A DNA stretch of 64,000 nt. Source: Thermoproteota archaeon. GTDB lineage: Archaea > Thermoproteota > Thermoprotei_A > EX4484-217-1. A program made the translations under genes and the position numbers. The stretch spans positions 101,183-165,182 of the forward strand of contig JAPDJU010000006.1 of the NCBI GenBank assembly GCA_029258915.1, written 5' to 3'. Shown here one piece after another: positions 6,127 to 63,938 of this stretch. Under the pieces are notes generated by a model. The model did no database searches and was not told the origin of the DNA. It saw only the letters and a program-made list of their open reading frames with translations. Position 1 is the stretch's first letter; every line of letters begins with the position of its first letter.

Positions 6127-7512
6127 ATGAGCATCAAAGAAATTTCTAAACTAACATCGAAGAAAATATCTAAGAATCTCGAAATTGCTGAAGAATATGA
6201 GAAATATGTTACTAAAGGATTTGCTTTCAAATACTTTCCTGTAGCTATTGTTAAAACTAAGGGGGCTAAAGTTTGGGATGCGGACGGAAACGAGTATATA
6301 GACTTTCTCTCCAGTGCCGCAAAATATAATATTGGCCATACAAACGAATATGTTGTTAAAGCTATTAAAGAGGGGTTAGAAAACTTCATACATTACTGCC
6401 TATACTTCTACCATGAACCAGCAGTTAAGTTTGCCAAGCTCTTAGTAGAGATAACGCCAGGCAACTTTAAGAAAAAAGTTGCTTTCGGATTAAGCGGATC
6501 AGAATCTTGCGATCACGCTATTAAAGCTTCTTTGTTATATACTGAAAGACCGAACATTGCTTCGTTTACATATTCTTATTATGGAACAACCTATGCTACA
6601 CTCTCGGCGTCGGGATCTTTTAGTCCTAAGCTTAGAAAGAGAATACATGCACTACCTAATGTCTACTTCTTCCAATATCCTGACACCTATAGGTGCCCCT
6701 TCAATTTAAGTGAAGAAGAATGCGGCGAATATTATTTAAGCCTAATCGAGGACTTCTTTAAGTCAACAATCGCAGGCGAGTCTTTCGCTATATTTCTTGC
6801 TGAACCTATACAAGGAGATGCTGGAGTGCTTGTTCCACCAAAGAACTTTATGCGAGGATTGCGCAAATTAACTAAAGAATACGGTATAATATTTGCTGAC
6901 GATGAAATACAGGCTGGAATGGCTAGAACGGGTAAAATGTTTGCGATAGAACATTTTAATGTAGAACCTGATCTGATCATAGTAGGGAAGGCTGTGGGCG
7001 GTGGTATGCCTGTTTCTGCTGTTGTTGGTAGGGAGGAAATACTTGATTCAGCGCTGCCACAAACATATTTCTCATCTTATGCTGCACATGCATTATCTCT
7101 ACGAGCTGCAATTGCAACCATAGAGTACATATTAAGAGAAAAACTTGCTGAAAGGGCAGAAAAGCTAGGCAATCACGCTAAAAAAAGATTCAATGAGCTT
7201 AAGGAAAAATATGAAATCGTAGGCGATGTTAGAGGTTTAGGATTGCTTTTAGGCGTAGAAATAGTTAAGAAAAAAGAAACAAAGGAGCCTGACAGGACTT
7301 CAGCACTAAAAATAATTTGGAGATGCTGGGAGAAAGGTCTTTTAATGATGACGTATGGTAAATACGGTAACGTACTTAGAATAGCCCCGCCATTAGTAAT
7401 TAGTAAGGAAGAGCTAGACAAGGCTATAGATATTATTGAAGAATCCATTAAGGACGTTATTGCTGGTAAGGTAACAGATGAAATAGTTAAGTATTTGAGA
7501 GCATGGGAGTAA
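6127..7512 (+). CDS. Class III (PLP-dependent) aminotransferase, 4-aminobutyrate/ornithine aminotransferase-like
   Basis: GLSGSES, the FADDEIQAGMARTGKMFA region and GDVRGLGLLLGVEIV are characteristic of class III aminotransferases. Confidence 0.8.
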   Translation: MSIKEISKLTSKKISKNLEIAEEYEKYVTKGFAFKYFPVAIVKTKGAKVWDADGNEYIDFLSSAAKYNIGHTNEYVVKAIKEGLENFIHYCLYFYHEPAVKFAKLLVEITPGNFKKKVAFGLSGSESCDHAIKASLLYTERPNIASFTYSYYGTTYATLSASGSFSPKLRKRIHALPNVYFFQYPDTYRCPFNLSEEECGEYYLSLIEDFFKSTIAGESFAIFLAEPIQGDAGVLVPPKNFMRGLRKLTKEYGIIFADDEIQAGMARTGKMFAIEHFNVEPDLIIVGKAVGGGMPVSAVVGREEILDSALPQTYFSSYAAHALSLRAAIATIEYILREKLAERAEKLGNHAKKRFNELKEKYEIVGDVRGLGLLLGVEIVKKKETKEPDRTSALKIIWRCWEKGLLMMTYGKYGNVLRIAPPLVISKEELDKAIDIIEESIKDVIAGKVTDEIVKYLRAWE

Positions 7513-7530: not shown

Positions 7531-10500
7531 TTACATTGTTCTAGCAATTTTACCTAGTCTAGGCTCGTATAGGCTTCCTTCTCTCCTCAGCTGGTCAAGT
7601 ATTTCCTCCACTTCCTTAGCATCTAAACCTGATTTTACGGCTTGCTCTATAACATCTGATTTCTTAACCTCGGCACCAGGGTATTCTTCAAGTTTTTCTA
7701 TGATCTCCATGACTTTCATGATTTTTAATCTTCTGCTGACAGGTTTACCTGTCATAATAATGTCTATATCTATAACCCCGGCTTCAATATCTAAACCTAC
7801 GTCTTTGAAGCTTCTAACCACTAGGTCTATTGCTGCCTTAGCGTCTTCAGCTGTTACTTCGTTTCTTAAAACCATTCTAGCATGTGCTTCTGCAAGCCTA
7901 ATTATTGCTTCCAGTTGTCTAGGTGTTATAGGTATTGGAGCATTTGGGTTTTCACTTGCCTTACTCCTTAAGTTAACGAAGAAATCTGAAATTATTTTTG
8001 CAGCCTCCTCAGTTAATCTTGGTTTCACATATTTCCTAGCATATCCGACATATTTTCTAAGTAACGATGGAGGTATTGGAGGTTTTACACGTTCATACTG
8101 CTTATGAACAGTAAGTATGTGAGACACTAGCTCCTCATCTGTTTGCGGCGCTGGCTTATCTCTCATTACAAATATTAGGTCAAACCTTGAGAGAATTGTT
8201 GGAGGCAAGTTTATGTTTTCAGTAAAGAGCCTGTCTTCAATGTACCTTCCAAACTTAGGATTACCTGCTGCAAGAATAGCTGTTCTAGCGTTAAGCCTAG
8301 CAACAATACCGGCTTTAGCTATACTTATGGTCTGCTGTTCCATTGCTTCATGAATAGCTACTCTATCTTCAGGCCTCATTTTGTCTATTTCATCGATAGC
8401 ACATATCCCTCCATCAGCTAAAACTAAGGCTCCAGCCTCTAAGAAGTAATCCCCAGTGGACTTATCTCTAATCACTGCTGCAGTTAATCCAGCGGCACTG
8501 CTACCCTTACCTGAAGTATATAGTCCTCTAGGAGCAATTCTTGCAATGTATTGGAGAATCTGGCTATTATGTAAGAATAGTAGGCCTAAGCCTCCTACGA
8601 AGTTTTCATTATCTTCAACTGAAATATCATAGACGAACCTATAATGTTCTGGTTCTATTTCTACTAGCGGTATTTCTTTTACTTCTTCTACAGTATCCCA
8701 CATTAAATTCTCATTTTTAACAATTTTCCTTAGACCATAAAGTAGTTCCTCACGTATATCTGTTAGCTGTGTGACGGTTCTAAGTATTTTTAGACCATAT
8801 TTTCTACCGACATAGCCTCTATAGATCTTTCCCCTAAACTCTGCACCTATTGGCCTAAGATCTCCTTTATTTAGACCTGCATTTTGTAGTATCCTTAAAA
8901 GTTCCTTACCTATAGGGACTCTGTCAACGTAGTCTGAAGACTTCTCCCTGGTTTTTCTAAGTTTTAATATTTTCTTTCCAACATTAATGTCGAATGTTTT
9001 CACAAGTTCTTCCATTTTAACAATATTTACTTCATAATACTCAATTTTTCTACCTTTATATTTAGTCTCTTTAATTCTTATTGTATATGGTAAGCCGAGT
9101 CTTGTAAGTAAAATGGTAATTCCATGAACAATGTTAATGCTTGTTGTTGATATTTTAACTTCCTTACACGTGGATTTATCTGAAATCCCTACATAACCAT
9201 CAGAATCTATGAGTCCAGAAAGTAATCCTATAACATAGTCTAAAGGAGCTATGTAAGAGAATTCTGGGATCTTCTTTAACCTTGACATGTAGCCTTTCTT
9301 TTTAACCTTATGCAGTATTGAGCAGTCTAAGTACATGTTTTTCTTGATCCATTCTACGAATTTAGCATCATCTACTATTAGCCTATAATTGTTAAGTTTA
9401 GATTCGTATATTTTACATTTGACTTTAAAGTATTTTTCAACTATGTTCTTTAATCTGTTAAGTGTAGTAGCATTATTAGATGATATTTCTATTCTTTCAC
9501 TACTAGAAATTAAGGTTAAGCTTCCATCTCCAAGAAAGTAGCCGAGGAAATAACCTATGTCTTCGTTTAACTTTATTTCCCCTAAGTTAGTATGTATAGT
9601 TGTTATTAATTGTTTCCTTAATATAGGAGCTTTCTTAAGCAATGGTATTAGTGATTTTTTCTCTAGTGCTTCTAGAGGTTTTACGGGTACTAATAAACCA
9701 TTTTCATACGCTATGAGACTATGGTCCTTTGTTATAATTGCCCTTCTACCATACTTGGTCTTCACAATTACAACTTTCTTGGGAGCTTTATGTCTGATAA
9801 GGCTCTTAATTGGCTTAATTTCAACCTTAAACGTTAAAGGATTAACAGAGAATGTGTAAAGGTTAACTCCTATCTTATTTAGGTTAAGTATTTCTGTTTC
9901 TTCATGTTTCTCAACAGCATATCTATGTTTTTCAATATATTTATCAACTAGTTTACCTATGGGTTCGTAATGTATGTAGCCGTTAGAATCCATGTATAAT
10001 ATCGGCTCACTAAACACTAAGCTCTTTGCTACACCGGGGTCTCCAACGAGGAGAATGTGTATATCTCCTCTTATCCTTGTTCCGTCAGGTAGTTCTTTAG
10101 GAACACCTCCGAAAAGCAGGAGTGCTATTGCTTTCTTAATATGGTTATAGCCGTGAATTGCGGGAGCTATTGACTGTACGATTTTCTCTCTAATTTTAAG
10201 ATCCTTAGCTAGCTCAAGTATTTTCCTTTCATCTTCTTTAGAAATCTCTATTTCTTCAAGAACCTTTTGTGAAACTTCAAGACTATTTGCCTCAATCTTC
10301 ATTTCAAACGTTAGTTTTGTTCCTTTCTTAACAGATCTTTCACCTTTAACCGTTAAAATTCCAACTACTGTAACTCTGTCTCCAGGCCTAGCTTTATCTA
10401 CAAGGTCCTCTAATAGTACGACTTCAACGGACCTAGGCATATGCCCTGGGGGTACATCTTCAGGTTTTTCTTGAACTATGATCTTCTGCATATTAATAAA

Positions 10501-11106
10501 TTTAGATTTGTGGAGGAGCAGTTTAAACTGAGGTCTAGCTTTACGGCTTTCTATTTTTGTTCTCTTTCTTTCCTCACAGAACCCGCAAAGTTCAGGGTAT
10601 TCTATGGTTTCTTCCTCCTGAAGAACTTCGGTTTCACTACCGCACTCTAGACATTTGAAAACAGCTTTGTACAATCTCTGGATAACAGGGGTCATTCTCG
10701 TAATAATACCTTCTATCTGAACAAGTCTCTCAATATGCTCCGCTCCTAATTTACGTATGGGTACTGTTCTAGGTAAATTCCTGAACCTTACATAGAATTT
10801 TTCTGTTCTTTCAACAAGTTCTGGGTTTTCGCCTCTAACAATATCTTTCAAGGCTTCAGAAGCATATTCTAAGGTTATTCTAGGTTCTTCTAAAACCTTT
10901 AAAGCTAGATCAGGTTTTGTAAGTAAAAGGTCAGGAAAATCAACTATGAGAGATTTCTCACCCTTAATAGCAATATCTAAAATTTTATTCCAATACTTTA
11001 GCTTACCTTGTTTGTCCTTGAATGTTTTAAAGAAGTCTCTAAACTGGAGTTTTAAATCTACTTCTTTGGCTTCAATCATAGGTGCTTCTACTTCTTCTAC
11101 CGTCAT
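7531..11106 (-). CDS. mcm: MCM replicative helicase, interrupted by an intein in the Walker A P-loop
   Basis: N-terminal zinc motif CLECG...CGFCEE; Walker A GDPGVAK split from [31 protein letters not shown] by 486 aa; Walker B and arginine-finger region follow. Confidence 0.9.
   Translation of the reverse strand: [1191 protein letters not shown]
8566..10023 (-). mobile_element. Intein with LAGLIDADG homing-endonuclease domain, inside mcm (residues 362-847)
   Basis: Begins with Ser after GDPGVAK, block B TKDH, two LAGLIDADG motifs ([10 protein letters not shown] and [10 protein letters not shown]), ends HN followed by Ser +1; removing it restores a canonical MCM P-loop. Confidence 0.8.
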
Positions 11107-11119
11107 TCCTTATGCGCAC

Positions 11120-11686
11120 CTAATATTCTAAACCTATAGTTTCTTTTACCCAAACTCTAACTATATCTCTTATTGCCCAATACAATACTTTTTCCTCAGG
11201 AGTCATTCTAGCTAGTGCTTCTTTAGGTTCTTCAGTAACTAAGGACAGTACCAAAATTTTCTTTATCCTACTTCTCATGAAACCTCTTAAATGTGTTTCC
11301 AGGTTCCTATATTCCTCTATAATTTCAGATGTAGGTTTTATCTTAAGTAGTGTTTCTAGGTTTTTCAGCATGATTTCCGCTTTTAAATAGAAATCCTGAG
11401 GTATTTCTTGAAGTTGAGAAGGCTTTGTTATTGTTAATGCTTCTAAATATTCTAGGTTAGCTAGTTTCTCAACATCTACTTTTTCATCTTCCGATAGCTC
11501 AACTTTACCTTTTCCAGCTAACATATAGGCTAGCCATCGGGGCAATTCTGTTTCAACATCTTTTCTAAGCTCATATGTTCCTTGAGAATCAACGACCATA
11601 TCTTCTAATGACCTTATCTTTACAGGAAGAGTAAGTAGTTCTCCTCTTGAAGAATCTATGAGTATTTTAAGCATTTCCTTAAACAA
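11120..11686 (-). CDS. GINS subunit (probably Gins23-type), immediately upstream of mcm
   Basis: 188-aa helical protein placed where crenarchaeal gins23 sits relative to mcm; assignment rests on gene order and size rather than a strong motif. Confidence 0.45.
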   Translation of the reverse strand: MFKEMLKILIDSSRGELLTLPVKIRSLEDMVVDSQGTYELRKDVETELPRWLAYMLAGKGKVELSEDEKVDVEKLANLEYLEALTITKPSQLQEIPQDFYLKAEIMLKNLETLLKIKPTSEIIEEYRNLETHLRGFMRSRIKKILVLSLVTEEPKEALARMTPEEKVLYWAIRDIVRVWVKETIGLEY

Positions 11687-11811: not shown

Positions 11812-12792
11812 GTGGCTAGTGTTGAAGTAGAATTATTATGGGCTGAAAAATATAGGCCGAAAACACTAGATGAAATAGTTAATCAGGAAGAAATAGTTAG
11901 GAGGTTAAAACAGTTCGTTAAAAGTAGGAACATGCCTCACTGCTTATTTGCCGGACCTCCAGGTACAGGGAAAACTACTGCTGCCCTAGCGTTAGCCCAT
12001 GACTTATATGGTTCAGGCTATGCACGTTATGTTCTAGAGCTAAATGCTAGCGATGCTAGAGGTATAGATGTTATAAGAACGACTGTTAAAGAGTTTGCTA
12101 GAAGTGTTGTTCCAGGACCTATACCTTTCAAAATAATTATCTTAGATGAAGCAGATAATATGACGGCTGATGCTCAGCAAGCTCTTAGAAGAACTATGGA
12201 GCTTTTCACTTCAACATGTAGATTTATACTTATTGCAAACTATCCTAGTAAAATAATTGAACCAATACAGTCTAGAACAGCATTTTTCAGATTTACACCT
12301 TTAAAGAAAGAGGATGTAGTTGCAAGGCTGAAATGGATAGCTGACCAAGAAAACGTAAAATATGATATGGAGGCTTTGGAAACAATATTTGAGCTTTCTG
12401 AAGGAGATATGAGAAGAGCAATAAACATTCTACAAGCAGCCTCAGCTTTAGGTAGAGTAACTGTTGAAGCAGTATACAAGGTCATAGGTGCAGCACATCC
12501 TACAGAAGTTAGAGAAATGATTAAAGCCGCTTTAGCAGGCAGGTTTACTGAGGCAAGGGAGAAACTTAGAGCATTAATGATAAACTACGGTCTTTCAGGT
12601 GTAGATGTTGTAAAAGCTTTACATAGAGAAATATTCAGTGCTGAACTTAAAATCCCTGAAGAATTAAAGGTCATTATCGCAGACTATCTAGGCGAAGTAC
12701 AGTATAGGCTTGCTGAAGGAGCAGACGATGAAATCCAGTTAAGTGCACTTATTGCACGTTTAGCTATGCTAGGTAAGAGGCTAAGGGTATAA
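11812..12792 (+). CDS. rfcS: Replication factor C small subunit
   Basis: N-terminal KYRP, Walker [14 protein letters not shown]-like [10 protein letters not shown] and sensor motifs; GTG start. Confidence 0.9.
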
Positions 12793-39901: not shown

Positions 39902-41344
39902 ATGCCTAAACCTGCCTTGACTCTACTATCGAAAGATGAAATAGAGGTAGTTCATGAACGCTCATTGGAAATTTTAAGTGAAATAGGTGTTAAAATAGAA
40001 GATGAAAATGTAGTAAACATGTTAAAAAGTAAGGGCTTAGATGTAGAAGGCAAAGTGGTTAAGATACCTGCATATATGGTTAAAGAGGCTTTAGCCAAAA
40101 CACCTAGAACCATAACATTATATGATAGAAACGGTAAGCCATATCATGTTTTAGGCGAAGGAAAAACACTATTTAATCCAGGCTCAGCTGCAATTAAAAT
40201 ATTAGATTATGGTTCTACAGAGCCTAGACCACCAATACTTAAAGATTTGAGAGATTTAGTAATAGTGGTTGATGCTTTAGAAAATATTAAAGCTCAAAGC
40301 ACAGCTTTAGTACCAATCGATATACCAATAGAAGTCAGCGACTTAGTTAGATTATATCCTGTATTAAAGTACTCTGAAAAACCAATAATAACGGGTGCTT
40401 TCAGTGTTGAAGGCCTACACTATATGGTTAAAGCTCTTTCAATAGTTGTAAATGACTTAGATAAAAAGCCTTTAGCAATATTTGATGTTTGTCCTTCACC
40501 ACCTTTACAGTGGAGCAAAATAGCTATAGGAAATCTTGTTGATGGGGCAAAATACCATGTACCTTTAGAGATAATACCTATGCCTCAAATAGGTGCTACG
40601 GGTCCCGTAACAATAGCTGGGTCTCTCATACAGCATAATGCCGAAATTCTTAGCGGTATAGTTATCGCTCAACTTACTTCCCCGGGAACACCAATAATCT
40701 ATGGGGGCTCACCTTCAACATTTGAAATGAGGCATGGAACATCATTGATCGCGGGCATAGAAGCACTGCTTCTGGTAACAGCATATGTAGACATGGCTAA
40801 ATACTATGGGATACCTGTTCACGGATATTTAGGGTTGAGTGATTCAAAACAAATAGACTACCAAGCAGGATTAGAAACCATGTTAGGAGCCCTAATTGCT
40901 ACGATTAAAGGTGTCGATGTTGCTTCAGGACCTGGAATGCTTGAATTTGAAAGTGTTCAAAGCTTAGAAAAATTAGTGTTAGATAATGAGATATGCGGTT
41001 TAGCATTTAGATACGCTAAGGGCTTTGAAATTTCTAAAGACACATTGGCAATAAATGTTGTAAGGAAAGTTAGACATGGAGGCCACTTTTTAGCTCAAAA
41101 ACATACCGTTAAATATCTAAGAAGAGAACTATATATGCCAAAAATACTGGATAGGGCGGGCAGAGGAACAGCAATAAAAAGTATTATTCAGAAGGCACAT
41201 GAAGAAGTAATTAGAGTTCTTAAAGAACATAAAGCACCCATACTGGATAAAGACATTGAAAAAGAGCTAGTTGAGTACATAAATTCAGTAACATTAAAAT
41301 ATGGTTGCAATTTAGACACTATAATCTCTAAATACCGCATATAG
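39902..41344 (+). CDS. MttB-superfamily methyltransferase (non-pyrrolysine trimethylamine/glycine betaine:corrinoid methyltransferase-like)
   Basis: 480-aa uninterrupted ORF whose length and composition recall MttB/MtgB TIM-barrel methyltransferases; family call is by overall resemblance and is unverified. Confidence 0.6.
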   Translation: MPKPALTLLSKDEIEVVHERSLEILSEIGVKIEDENVVNMLKSKGLDVEGKVVKIPAYMVKEALAKTPRTITLYDRNGKPYHVLGEGKTLFNPGSAAIKILDYGSTEPRPPILKDLRDLVIVVDALENIKAQSTALVPIDIPIEVSDLVRLYPVLKYSEKPIITGAFSVEGLHYMVKALSIVVNDLDKKPLAIFDVCPSPPLQWSKIAIGNLVDGAKYHVPLEIIPMPQIGATGPVTIAGSLIQHNAEILSGIVIAQLTSPGTPIIYGGSPSTFEMRHGTSLIAGIEALLLVTAYVDMAKYYGIPVHGYLGLSDSKQIDYQAGLETMLGALIATIKGVDVASGPGMLEFESVQSLEKLVLDNEICGLAFRYAKGFEISKDTLAINVVRKVRHGGHFLAQKHTVKYLRRELYMPKILDRAGRGTAIKSIIQKAHEEVIRVLKEHKAPILDKDIEKELVEYINSVTLKYGCNLDTIISKYRI

Positions 41345-60440: not shown

Positions 60441-61961
60441 GTGGTTCTTGTTGTTAATTTTGGTGGGCAATACGCTCATTTAATATCTCGAAGGCTAAGG
60501 GAACTAAATATTTATACTGAAGTTGTTTCGCATAGGAGTCTAAAAAGCGTAATTGCCCAGAAAAATGTTAAAGCCCTTATTCTTTCAGGAGGACCTGCTA
60601 GCGTATATGATAATGAGGAAGACATTAAGAATTTAGACTTCATATTAAACCTTAACATACCAGTTTTAGGTATTTGTTACGGTCACCAACTCCTAGCTAA
60701 GCTTGTCAGCGGCGACGTTAAAAGGGGTAAAGGGGAGTTTGGACGTACAGAAATTAAAATACTAAAAGACGATCCTCTGTTTAAAGGATGGGAGCAGAAA
60801 GAAAATGTATGGATGAGCCATAGAGACTACGTAGCAGAATTACCAGATATAGCTGAAGTTTTAGCTGTTTCTGAAAGAGACTATATTGCAGCTTTTAAGC
60901 TTAAAAACAAGCCCATATATGGTGTACAGTTCCATCCCGAAGTTCATCATACTGCTAAAGGCAGGAAACTCCTCAACAATTTCATAGAGGTTTCAGGAAT
61001 TAAAAAACGTTGGAAACTTAAAGACATAGTAGAGGATATTATTAACTACATTAGTAGAACTATTGAACCTAACGCTAAAGCCTTAGCAGCTATCAGCGGT
61101 GGCATAGACTCAACGGTTGCTGCAGTATTAGTTAAGAAGATTATTGGTGACAGATTAGTTCCTATATTAGTAGATCATGGATTGTTCCGTAAAGGAGAAG
61201 TTGAGGAATCAATTAAATGTTTAAGAAAGATAGGTTTAGAACCTGTTGTAGTAGATGCTAGAGAAAGGTTTCTCAAGAAACTCTGGGGTACTAGAGATTG
61301 TGAAGAGAGAAGGAGAATCATAGGCAACACATTTGCTGAAATATTTAGCGAACTTGCAGAAGAAGATTCAAACATAAAATACTTAGTTCAAGGAACAACA
61401 TATCCAGATGTTATTGAAAGCGGGCATGTAGAAAAAGCAGATAAAATAAAAAGCCACCATAATGTTGCTGCTCTTCCATCGTGGCTTAAGCTTAAAGTAG
61501 TAGAGCCTCTTAAATTCCTCTATAAAGATGAAGTAAGAAGAATAGCTAAAATAATTGGAGTTCCTAACGAAATAATTAGTAAACACCCATTTCCGGGGCC
61601 AGGGTTTGCGGTAAGAGTTATTGGAGTTTTTACACCTGAAAAGCTTGAGATTTCTAGAAATGCTTCTAAAATACTTGAAGATGAGCTTAGAAAAGAAAAC
61701 CTTTACAATAATGTTTGGCAAGCTTTTGCAGTAGTAGGCGATGACACTTGGGTTGGGATTAAGGGAGATTCTAGAGATGTAGGGTACATAGTTACGTTGA
61801 GAATTGTTGTTAGTGAAGATGCTATGACAGCTGACTGGTATAGAATACCTTACGATGTTCTCGATAGAGTTTCGAGAAGAATAGTAAGCGAGTTAGATAG
61901 GGTAACAATGGTAACATATGCTATATCATCTAAACCCCCCAGCACCATAGAACCTTGCTAA
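60441..61961 (+). CDS. guaA: GMP synthase (glutamine-hydrolysing), fused GATase and ATP-pyrophosphatase domains
   Basis: GATase GICYGHQLL and PP-loop SGGIDSTV motifs; GTG start. Confidence 0.9.
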   Translation: MVLVVNFGGQYAHLISRRLRELNIYTEVVSHRSLKSVIAQKNVKALILSGGPASVYDNEEDIKNLDFILNLNIPVLGICYGHQLLAKLVSGDVKRGKGEFGRTEIKILKDDPLFKGWEQKENVWMSHRDYVAELPDIAEVLAVSERDYIAAFKLKNKPIYGVQFHPEVHHTAKGRKLLNNFIEVSGIKKRWKLKDIVEDIINYISRTIEPNAKALAAISGGIDSTVAAVLVKKIIGDRLVPILVDHGLFRKGEVEESIKCLRKIGLEPVVVDARERFLKKLWGTRDCEERRRIIGNTFAEIFSELAEEDSNIKYLVQGTTYPDVIESGHVEKADKIKSHHNVAALPSWLKLKVVEPLKFLYKDEVRRIAKIIGVPNEIISKHPFPGPGFAVRVIGVFTPEKLEISRNASKILEDELRKENLYNNVWQAFAVVGDDTWVGIKGDSRDVGYIVTLRIVVSEDAMTADWYRIPYDVLDRVSRRIVSELDRVTMVTYAISSKPPSTIEPC

Positions 61962-62582: not shown

Positions 62583-63938
62583 ATGACTACACATTATTCG
62601 TCAATATGTCCTTTTACCTACAGATATGGCTCCGTTGAAATGAGGAAAATATTGGAAAGACGCAATATTTTAAGAAAGTTTATAGAAGCAGAAGCCGCAT
62701 TAATGAAAGCCTTGGAAACCGTTGGTATTGCTCCTAAAGAATGCTATAAGAAAGTATTAGATACAATACCGGAAATAAGGCCTGAAGATATAGATGAATT
62801 GGAGAAGATAATAGGTCATGACATAGCATCTTTAGCTATCCTAATTGCTAAACGCTGCGGCGAATGTGGTAAATATGTGCATTTAGGCGCTACTAGTTAC
62901 GATATAGTCGATACTGCATGGGCTCTTATAGTAAGAGATGCTTTAGGAATAATTAAAAGCAAGTTAAGAAAAATTATTGAGAAAACTATTGAACTTGCTA
63001 TTAAGCATCAAGACACATTAGTTGTTGGTAGAACACATGGCCAACACGCACTACCTATAACGTTTGGTTTTAAACTTGCCAACTATATTTATGAACTGTC
63101 AAGAAGCTATGAAAGACTATGTGAGCTTGAAAAAAGAGTTTTAAGATGTAAAATGTCTGGAGCTGTAGGTACCATGGCTGCGTGGGGCGATAAAGGTTTA
63201 CACGTAGAGTCTACAGTGAGCCAAGTACTTCAACTAGAGCCCCATGTAATAGCTACACAGGTTGCTCCAAGAGATGGATTTGCAGAACTTATATCATCTC
63301 TAGCTATTTTAGCTAGTCAAATGGATAGATTGGCTCTTGAAGCTAGAGAATTAAGCCGGCCTGAAATAGCCGAATTAGATGTAGCTTATACTAAAGTAGG
63401 CAGTAGCACTATGCCTCATAAGAAAAACCCTGTAATAGCTGAGAGAATATCAGGTTTAGCTAAAATAGCTAGAGCCCTAGTTACTGTAGCTTTAGAAAAC
63501 ATTCCACTAATGCATGAAAGAGATTTAACTAATAGTAGTAGTGAAAGATTCCTAATTCCACATGCATTACTTGTTGTAGATCAAATATTAATTGATACTT
63601 ACAACATGTTAGAAGTCCTTAAAATTAATGAGAAAGCTATGAAGAAAAACCTTGAACTAAGCAAAGACACTATAGCATCGGAATGTTTAATGGTAAAGCT
63701 AGTGTTAAAAGCCAATATTCCACGACATGAAGCACACATGTTGTTGGTTAACCTTTCAAATAAGGCTTTAAATGAAAAAAGAAGTTTCAAAGAAATAGTA
63801 TTTGAAAGCAATATTGCAGCTCTTTTAACTAAGAAAGATATTGAAGAATGTTTTGACTTAAGCAGCTATCTGGGTAGCTATAAGCAGCTTATCTATAGAG
63901 CAATAAACTATGCTAAAAACGTTATGAAGAGGTGTTGA
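62583..63938 (+). CDS. purB: Adenylosuccinate lyase
   Basis: Fumarase/ASL signature region GSSTMPHKKNP. Confidence 0.85.
   Translation: MTTHYSSICPFTYRYGSVEMRKILERRNILRKFIEAEAALMKALETVGIAPKECYKKVLDTIPEIRPEDIDELEKIIGHDIASLAILIAKRCGECGKYVHLGATSYDIVDTAWALIVRDALGIIKSKLRKIIEKTIELAIKHQDTLVVGRTHGQHALPITFGFKLANYIYELSRSYERLCELEKRVLRCKMSGAVGTMAAWGDKGLHVESTVSQVLQLEPHVIATQVAPRDGFAELISSLAILASQMDRLALEARELSRPEIAELDVAYTKVGSSTMPHKKNPVIAERISGLAKIARALVTVALENIPLMHERDLTNSSSERFLIPHALLVVDQILIDTYNMLEVLKINEKAMKKNLELSKDTIASECLMVKLVLKANIPRHEAHMLLVNLSNKALNEKRSFKEIVFESNIAALLTKKDIEECFDLSSYLGSYKQLIYRAINYAKNVMKRC

Follow-up and report, generated by a model that had tools for sequence, protein, structure and literature searches.

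A putative class 1 intein with a nested LAGLIDADG endonuclease in the Walker A motif of a Desulfurococcales MCM helicase

The replicative helicase gene mcm of a metagenome-assembled genome of the Desulfurococcales (Thermoproteota), a hyperthermophilic archaeon, encodes a precursor in which the Walker A lysine and serine are 486 residues apart. The locus raises the question of what the intervening sequence is, whether a helicase can still be made from such a gene, and whether the insert is still mobile. The first-pass annotation had read the insert as an intein that splits the MCM Walker A motif, and the junction GDPGVAK/S that this reading implies was confirmed. Coordinates below are those of the window, that is, the whole 64,000-nucleotide stretch of DNA that was analyzed.

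The interrupted mcm gene and its intein-free counterpart

The precursor is encoded by one ORF, and its parts are as follows.

7531..11106, minus strand: MCM precursor ORF (N-extein, intein and C-extein in one frame), 1191 aa plus stop, uninterrupted
10024..11106, minus strand: N-extein, MCM residues 1-361, with Walker A GDPGVAK at its end (Lys361 codon AAG, 10024..10026)
8566..10023, minus strand: intein, 486 aa, precursor residues 362-847, delimited by blocks, profiles and fold and equal to the indel against the intein-free contig L001
7534..8565, minus strand: C-extein, 344 aa, beginning with the +1 nucleophile Ser of SQILQY (Ser codon AGC, 8563..8565; stop, 7531..7533)

Pfam placed MCM_N, MCM_OB, a split MCM P-loop domain, MCM_lid and WH domains on the precursor, and the NCBIfam profile minchrom_main_MCM scored 954.5 bits against a cut-off of 940. 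The gene lies in a conserved GINS-MCM / RFC replication gene cluster and is the only MCM gene seen in that cluster. The insert extends from SLVFSEP... (Ser362) to ...LFLHN (residue 847), between GDPGVAK and SQILQY. Since Ser1 and the +1 Ser are both encoded by AGC, excision alone leaves the boundary ambiguous by one codon; it was fixed as listed because the C-terminal His-Asn is obligatory.

Excision of the insert in silico, the check that had been set in advance, gave a 705-aa MCM with a restored P-loop (GDPGVAKSQILQY). The spliced protein was identical at 698 of 705 positions, with zero gaps, to the intein-free MCM P0019, which is encoded on a metagenomic contig (L001) that is syntenic with the window and 95-97% identical to it at the DNA level (approximately 96% over the spliced mcm coding DNA). 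The DNA indel between the two contigs had its breakpoints at window positions 10022/8568, with a 5-nt ambiguity from the repeated AGC codon, and fits 8566..10023. The earlier placement of a 486-aa insert at 8566-10023 between GDPGVAK and SQILQY was therefore exact, as judged by both the minus-strand frame and the L001 indel. For annotation purposes, the 1191-aa product is an intein-containing MCM precursor leading to a 705-aa mature helicase and a 486-aa intein endonuclease, and it would be wrong to label it a "hypothetical protein" or an MCM of unusual length.

Splicing domain and nested endonuclease

The features within the insert, in order from the N terminus of the intein, are as follows.

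9604..10023, minus strand: N-terminal HINT (splicing) subdomain, intein aa 1-140, with invariant S1, T98 and H101 and the predicted fold
9988..10023, minus strand: block A with Ser1, SLVFSEPILYMD, within the N-terminal HINT subdomain
9709..9741, minus strand: block B, AIITKDHSLIA, with T98 and H101 (T98-K-D-H101), within the N-terminal HINT subdomain
8989..9576, minus strand: LAGLIDADG homing-endonuclease core, approximately intein aa 150-345 (Pfam LAGLIDADG_3 in two stretches, Hom_end, Foldseek)
9520..9558, minus strand: LAGLIDADG motif 1, IGYFLGYFLGDGS, aa 156-168, with Asp166
9193..9234, minus strand: LAGLIDADG motif 2, VIGLLSGLIDSDGY, aa 264-277, with Asp275
8710..8976, minus strand: helical module, approximately intein aa 350-438, boundaries approximate (predicted helices 350-435, pLDDT 64-86)
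8566..8706, minus strand: C-terminal HINT subdomain, intein aa 440-486, with invariant D466, H485 and N486 (NCBIfam intein_Cterm)
8596..8637, minus strand: block F, FVYDISVEDNENFV, within the C-terminal HINT subdomain
8566..8586, minus strand: block G, GLLFLHN, with His485-Asn486 and then Ser+1, within the C-terminal HINT subdomain

The Pfam profile Intein_splicing matched the insert at E=1.5e-15 (57.8 bits; cut-off, 35.8), and the NCBIfam profiles intein_Nterm and intein_Cterm scored 34.3 bits (cut-off, 24.5) and 29.3 bits (cut-off, 15.6), respectively. The top PDB sequence match of the intein was PI-PkoII (E=5.9e-22). Residues S1, T98, H101, D466, H485 and N486 were unchanged across an alignment of 15 full-length inteins from the same insertion position (site a). 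Class 1 features were all present, namely, the nucleophiles Ser1 and Ser+1, the TxxH of block B, block F, and a penultimate His with a terminal Asn. Class 2 inteins are without an N-terminal nucleophile (having, for example, Ala1), and class 3 inteins combine the lack of a position-1 nucleophile with a Trp(B)-Cys(F4)-Thr(G5) triplet. Both of these classes were ruled out, and the intein was filed as class 1, because Ser1 is present and invariant and block F is without Cys. The hallmarks named in the first-pass annotation (Ser1, TKDH, two LAGLIDADG motifs, and HN followed by Ser) were thus all located, in agreement with the Pfam, NCBIfam and PDB matches and with the predicted fold.

The AlphaFold model of the intein (pLDDT 86.6; pTM 0.89) predicts a HINT fold with an alpha-beta-beta-alpha-beta-beta-alpha endonuclease inserted at the canonical site. 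In Foldseek, the top matches over the whole chain were PI-PkoII (E=7e-26), the TliVMA intein (TM 0.70/0.78), PI-PfuI and PI-SceI; matches to solved inteins had a probability of 1.00, with mini-inteins superposed over the HINT part at an rmsd of 2.3-3.0 A. The HINT part matched the Pab/Pho CDC21-1 inteins, and the endonuclease core matched I-DmoI and I-Tsp061I (TMt 0.60-0.70). The core was likewise recognized by Pfam LAGLIDADG_3 (E=2.9e-16, two stretches) and Hom_end (E=1.6e-6), and both D166 and D275 are kept, each at the C-terminal end of its predicted helix (154-166 and 261-275, respectively), as in double-motif endonucleases of the PI-SceI / PI-PfuI / PI-PkoII type. The helical module follows the endonuclease core and precedes the C-terminal HINT strands. 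It is probably an accessory or DNA-binding domain of the kind found in endonuclease-associated inteins, since the TliVMA intein, which gave the best global match to the model, is likewise built of HINT, endonuclease and accessory domain.

Selection was estimated from the comparison between the window and its 89%-identical homologue (P0017, contig L002). Extein dN/dS was 0.058 and 0.028, and that of the HINT subdomains was 0.07 (N-terminal) and 0.15 (C-terminal). The endonuclease core reached 0.34 and the accessory region 0.54, the latter being the fastest-evolving part. On these ratios, the splicing domain is strongly constrained and the endonuclease under relaxed selection, and the low values for exteins and HINT suggest that the gene product is functional and hence would be spliced. 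The same data bear on the idea that the insert might be an insertion domain that does not splice, or else an inactive element within an MCM pseudogene. No observation was found that supports it, and we consider it extremely improbable: the frame is intact, the catalytic residues are all present and invariant in the family, the model predicts a HINT fold, purifying selection on the exteins is very strong, excision leaves a gap-free MCM, and the gene keeps its place in the GINS-MCM / RFC cluster. An ordinary MCM insertion domain was ruled out by Ser1, TxxH, HN and the fold.

Together, the sequence and model data support, with a probability of about 0.93, the reading of the insert as a class 1 (canonical) intein at the MCM-a site, with a nested double-motif LAGLIDADG endonuclease, that takes part in a homing cycle. 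The element is real and ordinary, a textbook case at a well-known insertion site. From the conserved residues and established intein chemistry, splicing would proceed as follows. The whole 1191-aa precursor would be translated, and Ser1 would attack the Lys361-Ser362 bond in an N-O acyl shift, aided by Thr98 and His101, to give an ester; the hydroxyl of the +1 Ser would then receive the N-extein by transesterification. Cyclization of Asn486 to a succinimide, with help from His485, would free the intein, and an O-N shift would form the native Lys-Ser bond, yielding the 705-aa MCM with P-loop GDPGVAKSQ and the free 486-aa intein. The precursor should be helicase inactive until spliced, because 486 residues separate the Walker A Lys from the Ser; the dependence of helicase activity on splicing is thus a sound, if sequence-derived, expectation.

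The MCM-a site, related inteins and signs of movement

The MCM-a (CDC21-a) site lies directly after the Walker A lysine of MCM (PMC10643990, PMC4760082), and the junction found here is that site. MCM is the most frequent archaeal intein host, and its MCM-a P-loop site is well described. The earlier description of the MCM P-loop as a known intein hotspot thus agrees with the literature and with our sample of 40 MCM homologues, picked by similarity, that carry an intein at the same position. In this similarity-selected sample, 38 of the 40 inteins begin with Ser and 39 are then followed by Ser. Identity of the window intein to those of the 39 other MCMs ranged from 27 to 80%; full-length relatives (39-72% identity) came from Desulfurococcales and Pyrodictiaceae genomes assembled from metagenomes, and mini-inteins of 174-248 aa occupy the same position. 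When only the intein served as the query, a word-indexed search gave no hits at E<=1e-5 even though the database holds the precursor, the candidate step being limited for this Lys/Ile-rich query. An exhaustive search with the intein recovered 1214 relatives, and a full-length MCM query also recovered the family.

Among described systems, the haloarchaeal MCM-a inteins (e.g., that of Hfx. mediterranei; PMC10643990) share with the present intein the host protein, the insertion point, the LAGLIDADG endonuclease, presence in some close relatives but not in others, and the occurrence of both mini and full-size forms. Homing of the haloarchaeal element into empty alleles has been demonstrated experimentally (PMC10643990). 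They differ in belonging to Halobacteria rather than Thermoproteota/Desulfurococcales, the likeness being one of site and description and not of sequence alignment, and the Ser1 prevalent in our sampled family is a further difference. The Pyrococcus inteins PabCDC21-1 and PhoCDC21-1 (PDB 6RPP and 6RPQ; PMC6801210) share the MCM/Cdc21 P-loop site and a hyperthermophilic archaeal host, and they resemble the HINT part structurally (Foldseek E=3.4e-7 and 4e-6; rmsd 2.5 A) with a weak sequence match (E=1.3e-3). However, they are mini-inteins of 164-168 aa with no endonuclease and with Cys1 (crystallized as C1A; PMC6801210), whereas the window intein has 486 aa, an endonuclease, an extra helical module and Ser1.

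The TliVMA intein (PDB 7QSS; VMA-b; PMC8966425; sequence E=2.7e-8), with the best global fit to the model, has the same P-loop insertion and domain order of HINT, LAGLIDADG endonuclease and accessory domain and also keeps its active-site Asp residues; the VMA-b position has been called the same as MCM-a (PMC10643990). It differs in its host, subunit A of an A-type ATPase, in Cys1 (crystallized as C1A), and in its length of 429 aa, and identity in the structural alignment is only approximately 22%. PI-PkoII (the Tko Pol-2 intein; PDB 2CW7) has a near-identical block F/G (VYDLSVEDNENFL..HN versus VYDISVEDNENFV..HN). Like PI-PfuI (1DQ3), it is a bifunctional archaeal intein endonuclease, but both of these top Foldseek matches have other host genes, other accessory domains and 16-18% identity outside the splicing blocks.

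Evidence on movement came from comparing inteins with their exteins. In P0136, the site-a intein is 78% identical to that of the window, as against approximately 67-70% for the exteins; P0018 and P0137 lie at the same extein distance, and their inteins are 45% identical. In the vertical comparison, with P0017, intein divergence was approximately 3-fold that of the exteins. The incongruence in P0136 indicates, by comparison of sequence divergence, horizontal transfer in the lineage of the window intein. The window/L002 pair itself looks vertically inherited, because the intein dS (0.40) is close to that of the exteins (0.48-0.50).

Among the closest readable alleles (exteins about 90-99% identical), site a held the intein in the window and L002 and was empty in L001, L003 and L004. 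At the junction, the window reads GCA AAG/AGC CAG and the empty L001 allele reads GCC AAA AGT CAA, giving four consecutive synonymous differences; a junction-spanning run of at least that length occurred in 107 of 200,000 permutations, with one empty allele compared. The junction DNA types were GTAGCCAAAAGTCAAATT in empty L001, GTAGCAAAGAGCCAGATT for the fused window type, and GTAGCTAAATCACAGATA for the L003 type. Between -108 and +43 nt around the junction, L002 sided with the window at 9 of 11 window/L001 differences, compared to a ratio of approximately 1:1 elsewhere, a count that is only nominally significant and is based on one empty and one other intein-bearing allele. With L002 as the outgroup, the empty L001 allele is the odd one out near the junction (9/11), which is predicted both by a gain of the intein in the window lineage and by its loss in the L001 lineage.

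In the proposed homing step, the free intein would cut an intein-less mcm gene at the fused junction, and repair of the double-strand break would copy the intein in. The four silent differences might then mark an endonuclease-resistant target and an ongoing arms race between intein and host, with live homing, within one hydrothermal Desulfurococcales population, although we regard this as unlikely; a more ordinary reading takes them as a co-conversion scar. A degenerate-pattern metagenome scan for empty junctions returned three contigs, L001 and two with junctions identical to those of L003/L004, which are too few for an immune allele and co-conversion to be separated. The natural allele pair, with and without the intein (exteins 99% identical as protein, approximately 96% as coding DNA) and joined by a second intein-bearing allele at 89%, lends itself to work on the homing cycle in hyperthermophilic Thermoproteota that are uncultured and on telling target-site immunity from co-conversion. 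The locus is also a source of a thermostable Ser1/Ser+1 intein and possibly of an active, rare-cutting LAGLIDADG enzyme.

State of the endonuclease and possible role for the host

The comparative data fit the usual homing cycle, with patchy presence, apparent transfer between diverged hosts, a relaxed endonuclease, and loss of an active-site Asp in one relative. Some of the same observations could instead mean that the intein is competent for splicing while its endonuclease is inactive or decaying, leaving a vertically inherited, immobile remnant that is kept since imprecise loss would destroy MCM. This possibility deserves weight, although we hold it somewhat doubtful. It draws on the elevated dN/dS of the core and accessory region (0.34 and 0.54, versus 0.07-0.15 for HINT), on the similar dS of intein and exteins between the window and L002, and on the mini-inteins at the same site, which speak for repeated endonuclease loss. 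In the closest relative, P0017, the motif 1 Asp has become Asn (GNG), and in other members the active-site positions are occupied by H, K, I or N; inactivating changes outside D166 and D275 could exist as well. However, in the window copy the two catalytic Asp residues are still in place where their helices end, and dN/dS well below 1 suggests that purifying selection persists. An immobile remnant also sits poorly with the empty allele in an approximately 96%-identical lineage, with silent changes clustered at the target, and with the transfer suggested by P0136. The decayed-endonuclease account and the reading of an intein in its homing cycle differ in present-day endonuclease activity only.

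The position of the intein in the catalytic P-loop of a replicative helicase could also suggest a conditional-splicing switch by which the host turns MCM and replication on under permissive conditions, e.g., of temperature, and regulatory roles have been proposed for RadA and DnaB P-loop inteins (PMC4513877, PMC6195587, PMC4760082). Such a role would be compatible with a selfish element. We nevertheless judge it improbable, for the sequence indicates no sensor, the Ser/Ser nucleophiles make Cys-based redox or zinc traps inapplicable, and a 99%-identical MCM lives without the intein, so that the host has no need of it. A weaker suggestion would be that Ser1/Ser+1, near-universal in the crenarchaeal MCM-a family, is adaptive and leaves helicase maturation redox insensitive and dependent on temperature only.

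With Pfam, no other intein was found in the window among eight longer ORFs outside the MCM cluster and two short ones (the set being exclusive of 60441..61961 and 62583..63938). An ORF antisense to the mcm gene (9557..9859, plus strand) was considered as a real gene and rejected as spurious, having no Pfam match and lying opposite a coding region under selection. The intein DNA has a G+C content of 32.2%, compared to 38.8% for the exteins.

An intein at the MCM-a site and its removal in silico

The first-pass annotation had placed a 486-residue insert in the Walker A motif of the MCM helicase, and such an insert was found at exactly 8566..10023. Its DNA has a G+C content of 32.2%, versus 38.8% for the exteins (the host MCM parts on either side). 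The features of the gene are as follows.

7531..11106, minus strand: MCM precursor, a single long ORF of 1191 aa
8566..10023, minus strand: intein, 486 residues between GDPGVAK (precursor residues 355-361) and SQILQY (848-853)
Intein aa 156-168: IGYFLGYFLGDGS, first LAGLIDADG-type motif of the insert
Intein aa 264-277: VIGLLSGLIDSDGY, second LAGLIDADG-type motif of the insert
Block F of the intein: FVYDISVEDNENFV

The insert begins with SLVFSEP, carries T98 and H101 in the block AIITKDHSLIA, and ends with LFLHN. These residues, together with Ser1, Ser+1, the two motifs, and family matches, bear out the earlier assignment to class 1 inteins with LAGLIDADG motifs. Pfam matches to the intein were Intein_splicing (E=1.5e-15), LAGLIDADG_3 in two stretches (E=2.9e-16), and Hom_end (E=1.6e-6), and the curated NCBIfam cut-offs were exceeded by both intein_Nterm and intein_Cterm. 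The extein flanks matched MCM_N, MCM_OB, the MCM P-loop domain (split), MCM_lid, and a winged helix, and the whole precursor scored 954.5 bits with the NCBIfam MCM model (cut-off, 940). The element is thus a Ser1/Ser+1, LAGLIDADG-type class 1 intein at the known MCM-a site.

Deletion of precursor residues 362-847 in silico gave a 705-aa protein, which was compared with P0019, a 705-aa intein-free MCM in the protein database. The two were identical at 698 of 705 positions with zero gaps, and both read GDPGVAKSQILQY at the junction, so that in-frame excision regained the conserved P-loop. The contig encoding P0019 (L001; JGI sample 3300021472) has the same neighbors as the window, namely, Cdc6, RFC large, RFC small, GINS-like, MCM, aminotransferase, and deacetylase genes. 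Nucleotide identity was 97.1% on one side of the intein and 94.9% on the other. Since the alignment blocks stop at window positions 10022 and 8568, the two genomes differ here by the intein alone; the blocks overlap by 5 nt because an AGC Ser codon occurs at both intein ends.

From the invariant residues and standard intein chemistry, Ser1 would form an ester by an N-O shift assisted by T98/H101, Ser+1 would then carry out transesterification, cyclization of Asn486 assisted by His485 would free the intein, and an O-N shift would rebuild the Lys-Ser bond of MCM. Because 486 residues part the Walker A Lys from the Ser in the precursor, its ATP binding and helicase activity should depend on splicing.

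Predicted fold and constraint on the splicing and endonuclease domains

The closest solved structure by sequence was PI-PkoII (E=5.9e-22), whose block F/G is almost identical to that of the window intein, followed by the TliVMA, TFIIB, KlbA, and PolII inteins and the Pyrococcus CDC21-1 intein. An AlphaFold model of the intein, built from an alignment of 15 same-site inteins, had a mean pLDDT of 86.6 and a pTM of 0.89. In Foldseek searches of the PDB, the whole chain of the model matched PI-PkoII, TliVMA (TM 0.70/0.78), PI-PfuI, PhoVMA, and PI-SceI; the endonuclease core matched I-DmoI and I-Tsp061I; and the splicing (HINT) part matched mini-inteins including PabCDC21-1 and PhoCDC21-1. Catalytic acids of LAGLIDADG enzymes are located at the C-terminal ends of the motif helices, and Asp166 and Asp275 occupy these positions in both predicted helices of the model. 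The TliVMA and PhoVMA structures, solved by Beyer et al., have a HINT, homing endonuclease, and accessory-domain architecture, and PhoVMA is inactive because its active-site Asp residues are missing (PMC8966425).

Selection was estimated against P0017, the closest intein-bearing relative (contig L002), which is 89% identical.

dN/dS of MCM and intein parts, window versus P0017
N-extein: 0.058
C-extein: 0.028
N-terminal HINT: 0.07
C-terminal HINT: 0.15
Endonuclease core: 0.34
Helical region, intein 351-440: 0.54

This pattern of selection supports a functional window mcm gene. The values indicate that the splicing domain is constrained almost like the helicase and that the endonuclease and probable accessory domain are relaxed, yet not neutral. 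The window intein is very probably splicing competent and, with both active-site Asp residues retained, may still have an active endonuclease. Substitutions to H, K, I, or N at these active-site positions occur in other family members of the site-a intein alignment. In P0017 (L002 1061..4642), motif 1 reads GYFIGNGS versus GYFLGDGS in the window; with this Asp-to-Asn change, one catalytic Asp of the pair is lost, so the P0017 endonuclease is probably dead.

Distribution of MCM inteins and indirect traces of mobility

The description of this site as an intein hotspot agrees with earlier work: MCM ranks first among archaeal intein hosts, with 116 inteins and Crenarchaeota among the carriers, and insertion point a was placed in its P-loop (Novikova et al., PMC4760082). 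We extracted 40 inteins from homologues at the same position (361|362 in P0019 numbering); their lengths of 174-536 aa indicate that mini and full-size forms are both present. Terminal His-Asn was found in 40/40, a +1 Ser in 39/40, and Ser1 in 38/40, although the sample was chosen by query similarity and the Ser1 frequency may not hold across all MCM-a inteins. Pyrococcus CDC21-1 inteins, also at this site, have Cys1 (PMC6801210). Among species-representative genomes, full-length relatives (39-72% identical) came only from Desulfurococcales, Desulfurococcaceae, and Pyrodictiaceae MAGs. MCM homologues have at least four intein sites, at 361|362, 388|389, one or two at ~424-440, and 487. The precursors P0136 (2766 aa), P0137 (2256 aa), P0141 (2309 aa), and P0034 (1987 aa), 2-4x the mature MCM length, each have at least three inteins at these sites in the ATPase domain. 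For Haloferax MCM inteins, homing experiments have been reported, and so has frequent gain and loss (PMC10643990). Since the P-loop site and its inteins are well characterized, the window intein is a further example and not a new kind.

Among the nearest related alleles available for comparison (exteins ~90-99% identical to those of the window), occupancy of site a varies: the intein is present in the window and L002 and absent from L001, L003, and L004; L004 has an intein at a downstream MCM site instead. In the apparently vertical pair of the window and P0017, the inteins are 80% and the exteins 92-94% identical, a roughly 3x faster divergence of the intein. The P0136 intein is 78% identical to that of the window and its exteins only ~67-70%; P0018 and P0137 are at the same extein distance, yet their site-a inteins are only 45% identical. 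Greater conservation of intein than host in P0136, against the vertical P0017 pattern, therefore indicates a probable transfer between diverged hosts.

Of the 705 codons in the spliced window coding sequence, 85 differ from L001, and 78 of these differences are silent. The longest uninterrupted stretch of differing codons, Ala360-Lys361|Ser362-Gln363, straddles the junction exactly (four consecutive synonymous differences; window 10018..10026 and 8560..8568 versus L001 ~7077..7088), and a junction-spanning run this long arose in 107/200000 permutations. L001 diverges by 6.3% at distances up to 150 nt from the junction and by 3.7% elsewhere. From -108 to +43 nt, L002 sides with the window at 9/11 window/L001 differences; elsewhere the split is even. 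Among 12 intein-bearing alleles the junction Lys is AAG in 9/12 and the +1 Ser AGY in 12/12; the three empty alleles, a tiny sample, have Lys AAA and Ser AGT or TCA. These patterns would be compatible with homing in which short extein flanks were co-converted, or with intein loss through recombination with an empty allele; a further possibility is that the empty target resists cleavage. Between the window and L002, dS was 0.40 for the intein and 0.48-0.50 for the exteins; given this closeness, the signs of mobility concern the lineage and not recent movement of the window copy. As a near-identical natural allele pair with and without intein, and with a silent cluster at the homing site, the locus has modest added value for study of the homing cycle in uncultured hyperthermophilic Thermoproteota.

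Surroundings of the gene

11120..11686, minus strand: GINS-like gene directly upstream of mcm, same strand, 188-aa ORF
11812..12792, plus strand: RFC small subunit, 326 aa, GPPGTGKT intact, without intein
9557..9859, plus strand: antisense ORF inside the intein coding region, 100 aa, hydrophobic

The position of the GINS-like gene suggests a GINS subunit cotranscribed with MCM; its match to the Sld5/GINS helical bundle is weak (E=3e-4, under the Pfam cut-off). Its product with a TTG start was absent as an exact sequence from the protein collection, and in both L001 and L002 the orthologue is annotated with 184 aa; translation may therefore begin downstream of that codon. The antisense ORF, without a Pfam match, was rejected as spurious and is most likely an artifact of the A/T-rich, Lys-rich coding strand.

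RFC small and large subunit genes lie near mcm, divergently transcribed, in a replication cluster. No other inteins were found in the longer window ORFs scanned with Pfam. Four 903-aa proteins in the same 90%-identity cluster as the window RFC small subunit (P0006, P0009, P0011, and P0012) each carry, immediately behind the Walker A lysine, a 577-aa intein (GPPGTGK|C...HN|TTAALA; Cys1...HN|Thr). This is a second P-loop intein with presence/absence variation among these close relatives. The window RFC small subunit is an NCBI protein of a 'Thermoprotei archaeon' MAG and clusters with a protein of 'Desulfurococcales archaeon ex4484_217_2'. The genome appears to be that of a hyperthermophilic member of the Desulfurococcales, and it also encodes, at 39902..41344 on the plus strand, an MttB-family protein of 480 aa from the trimethylamine methyltransferase superfamily (Pfam E=3.8e-86).
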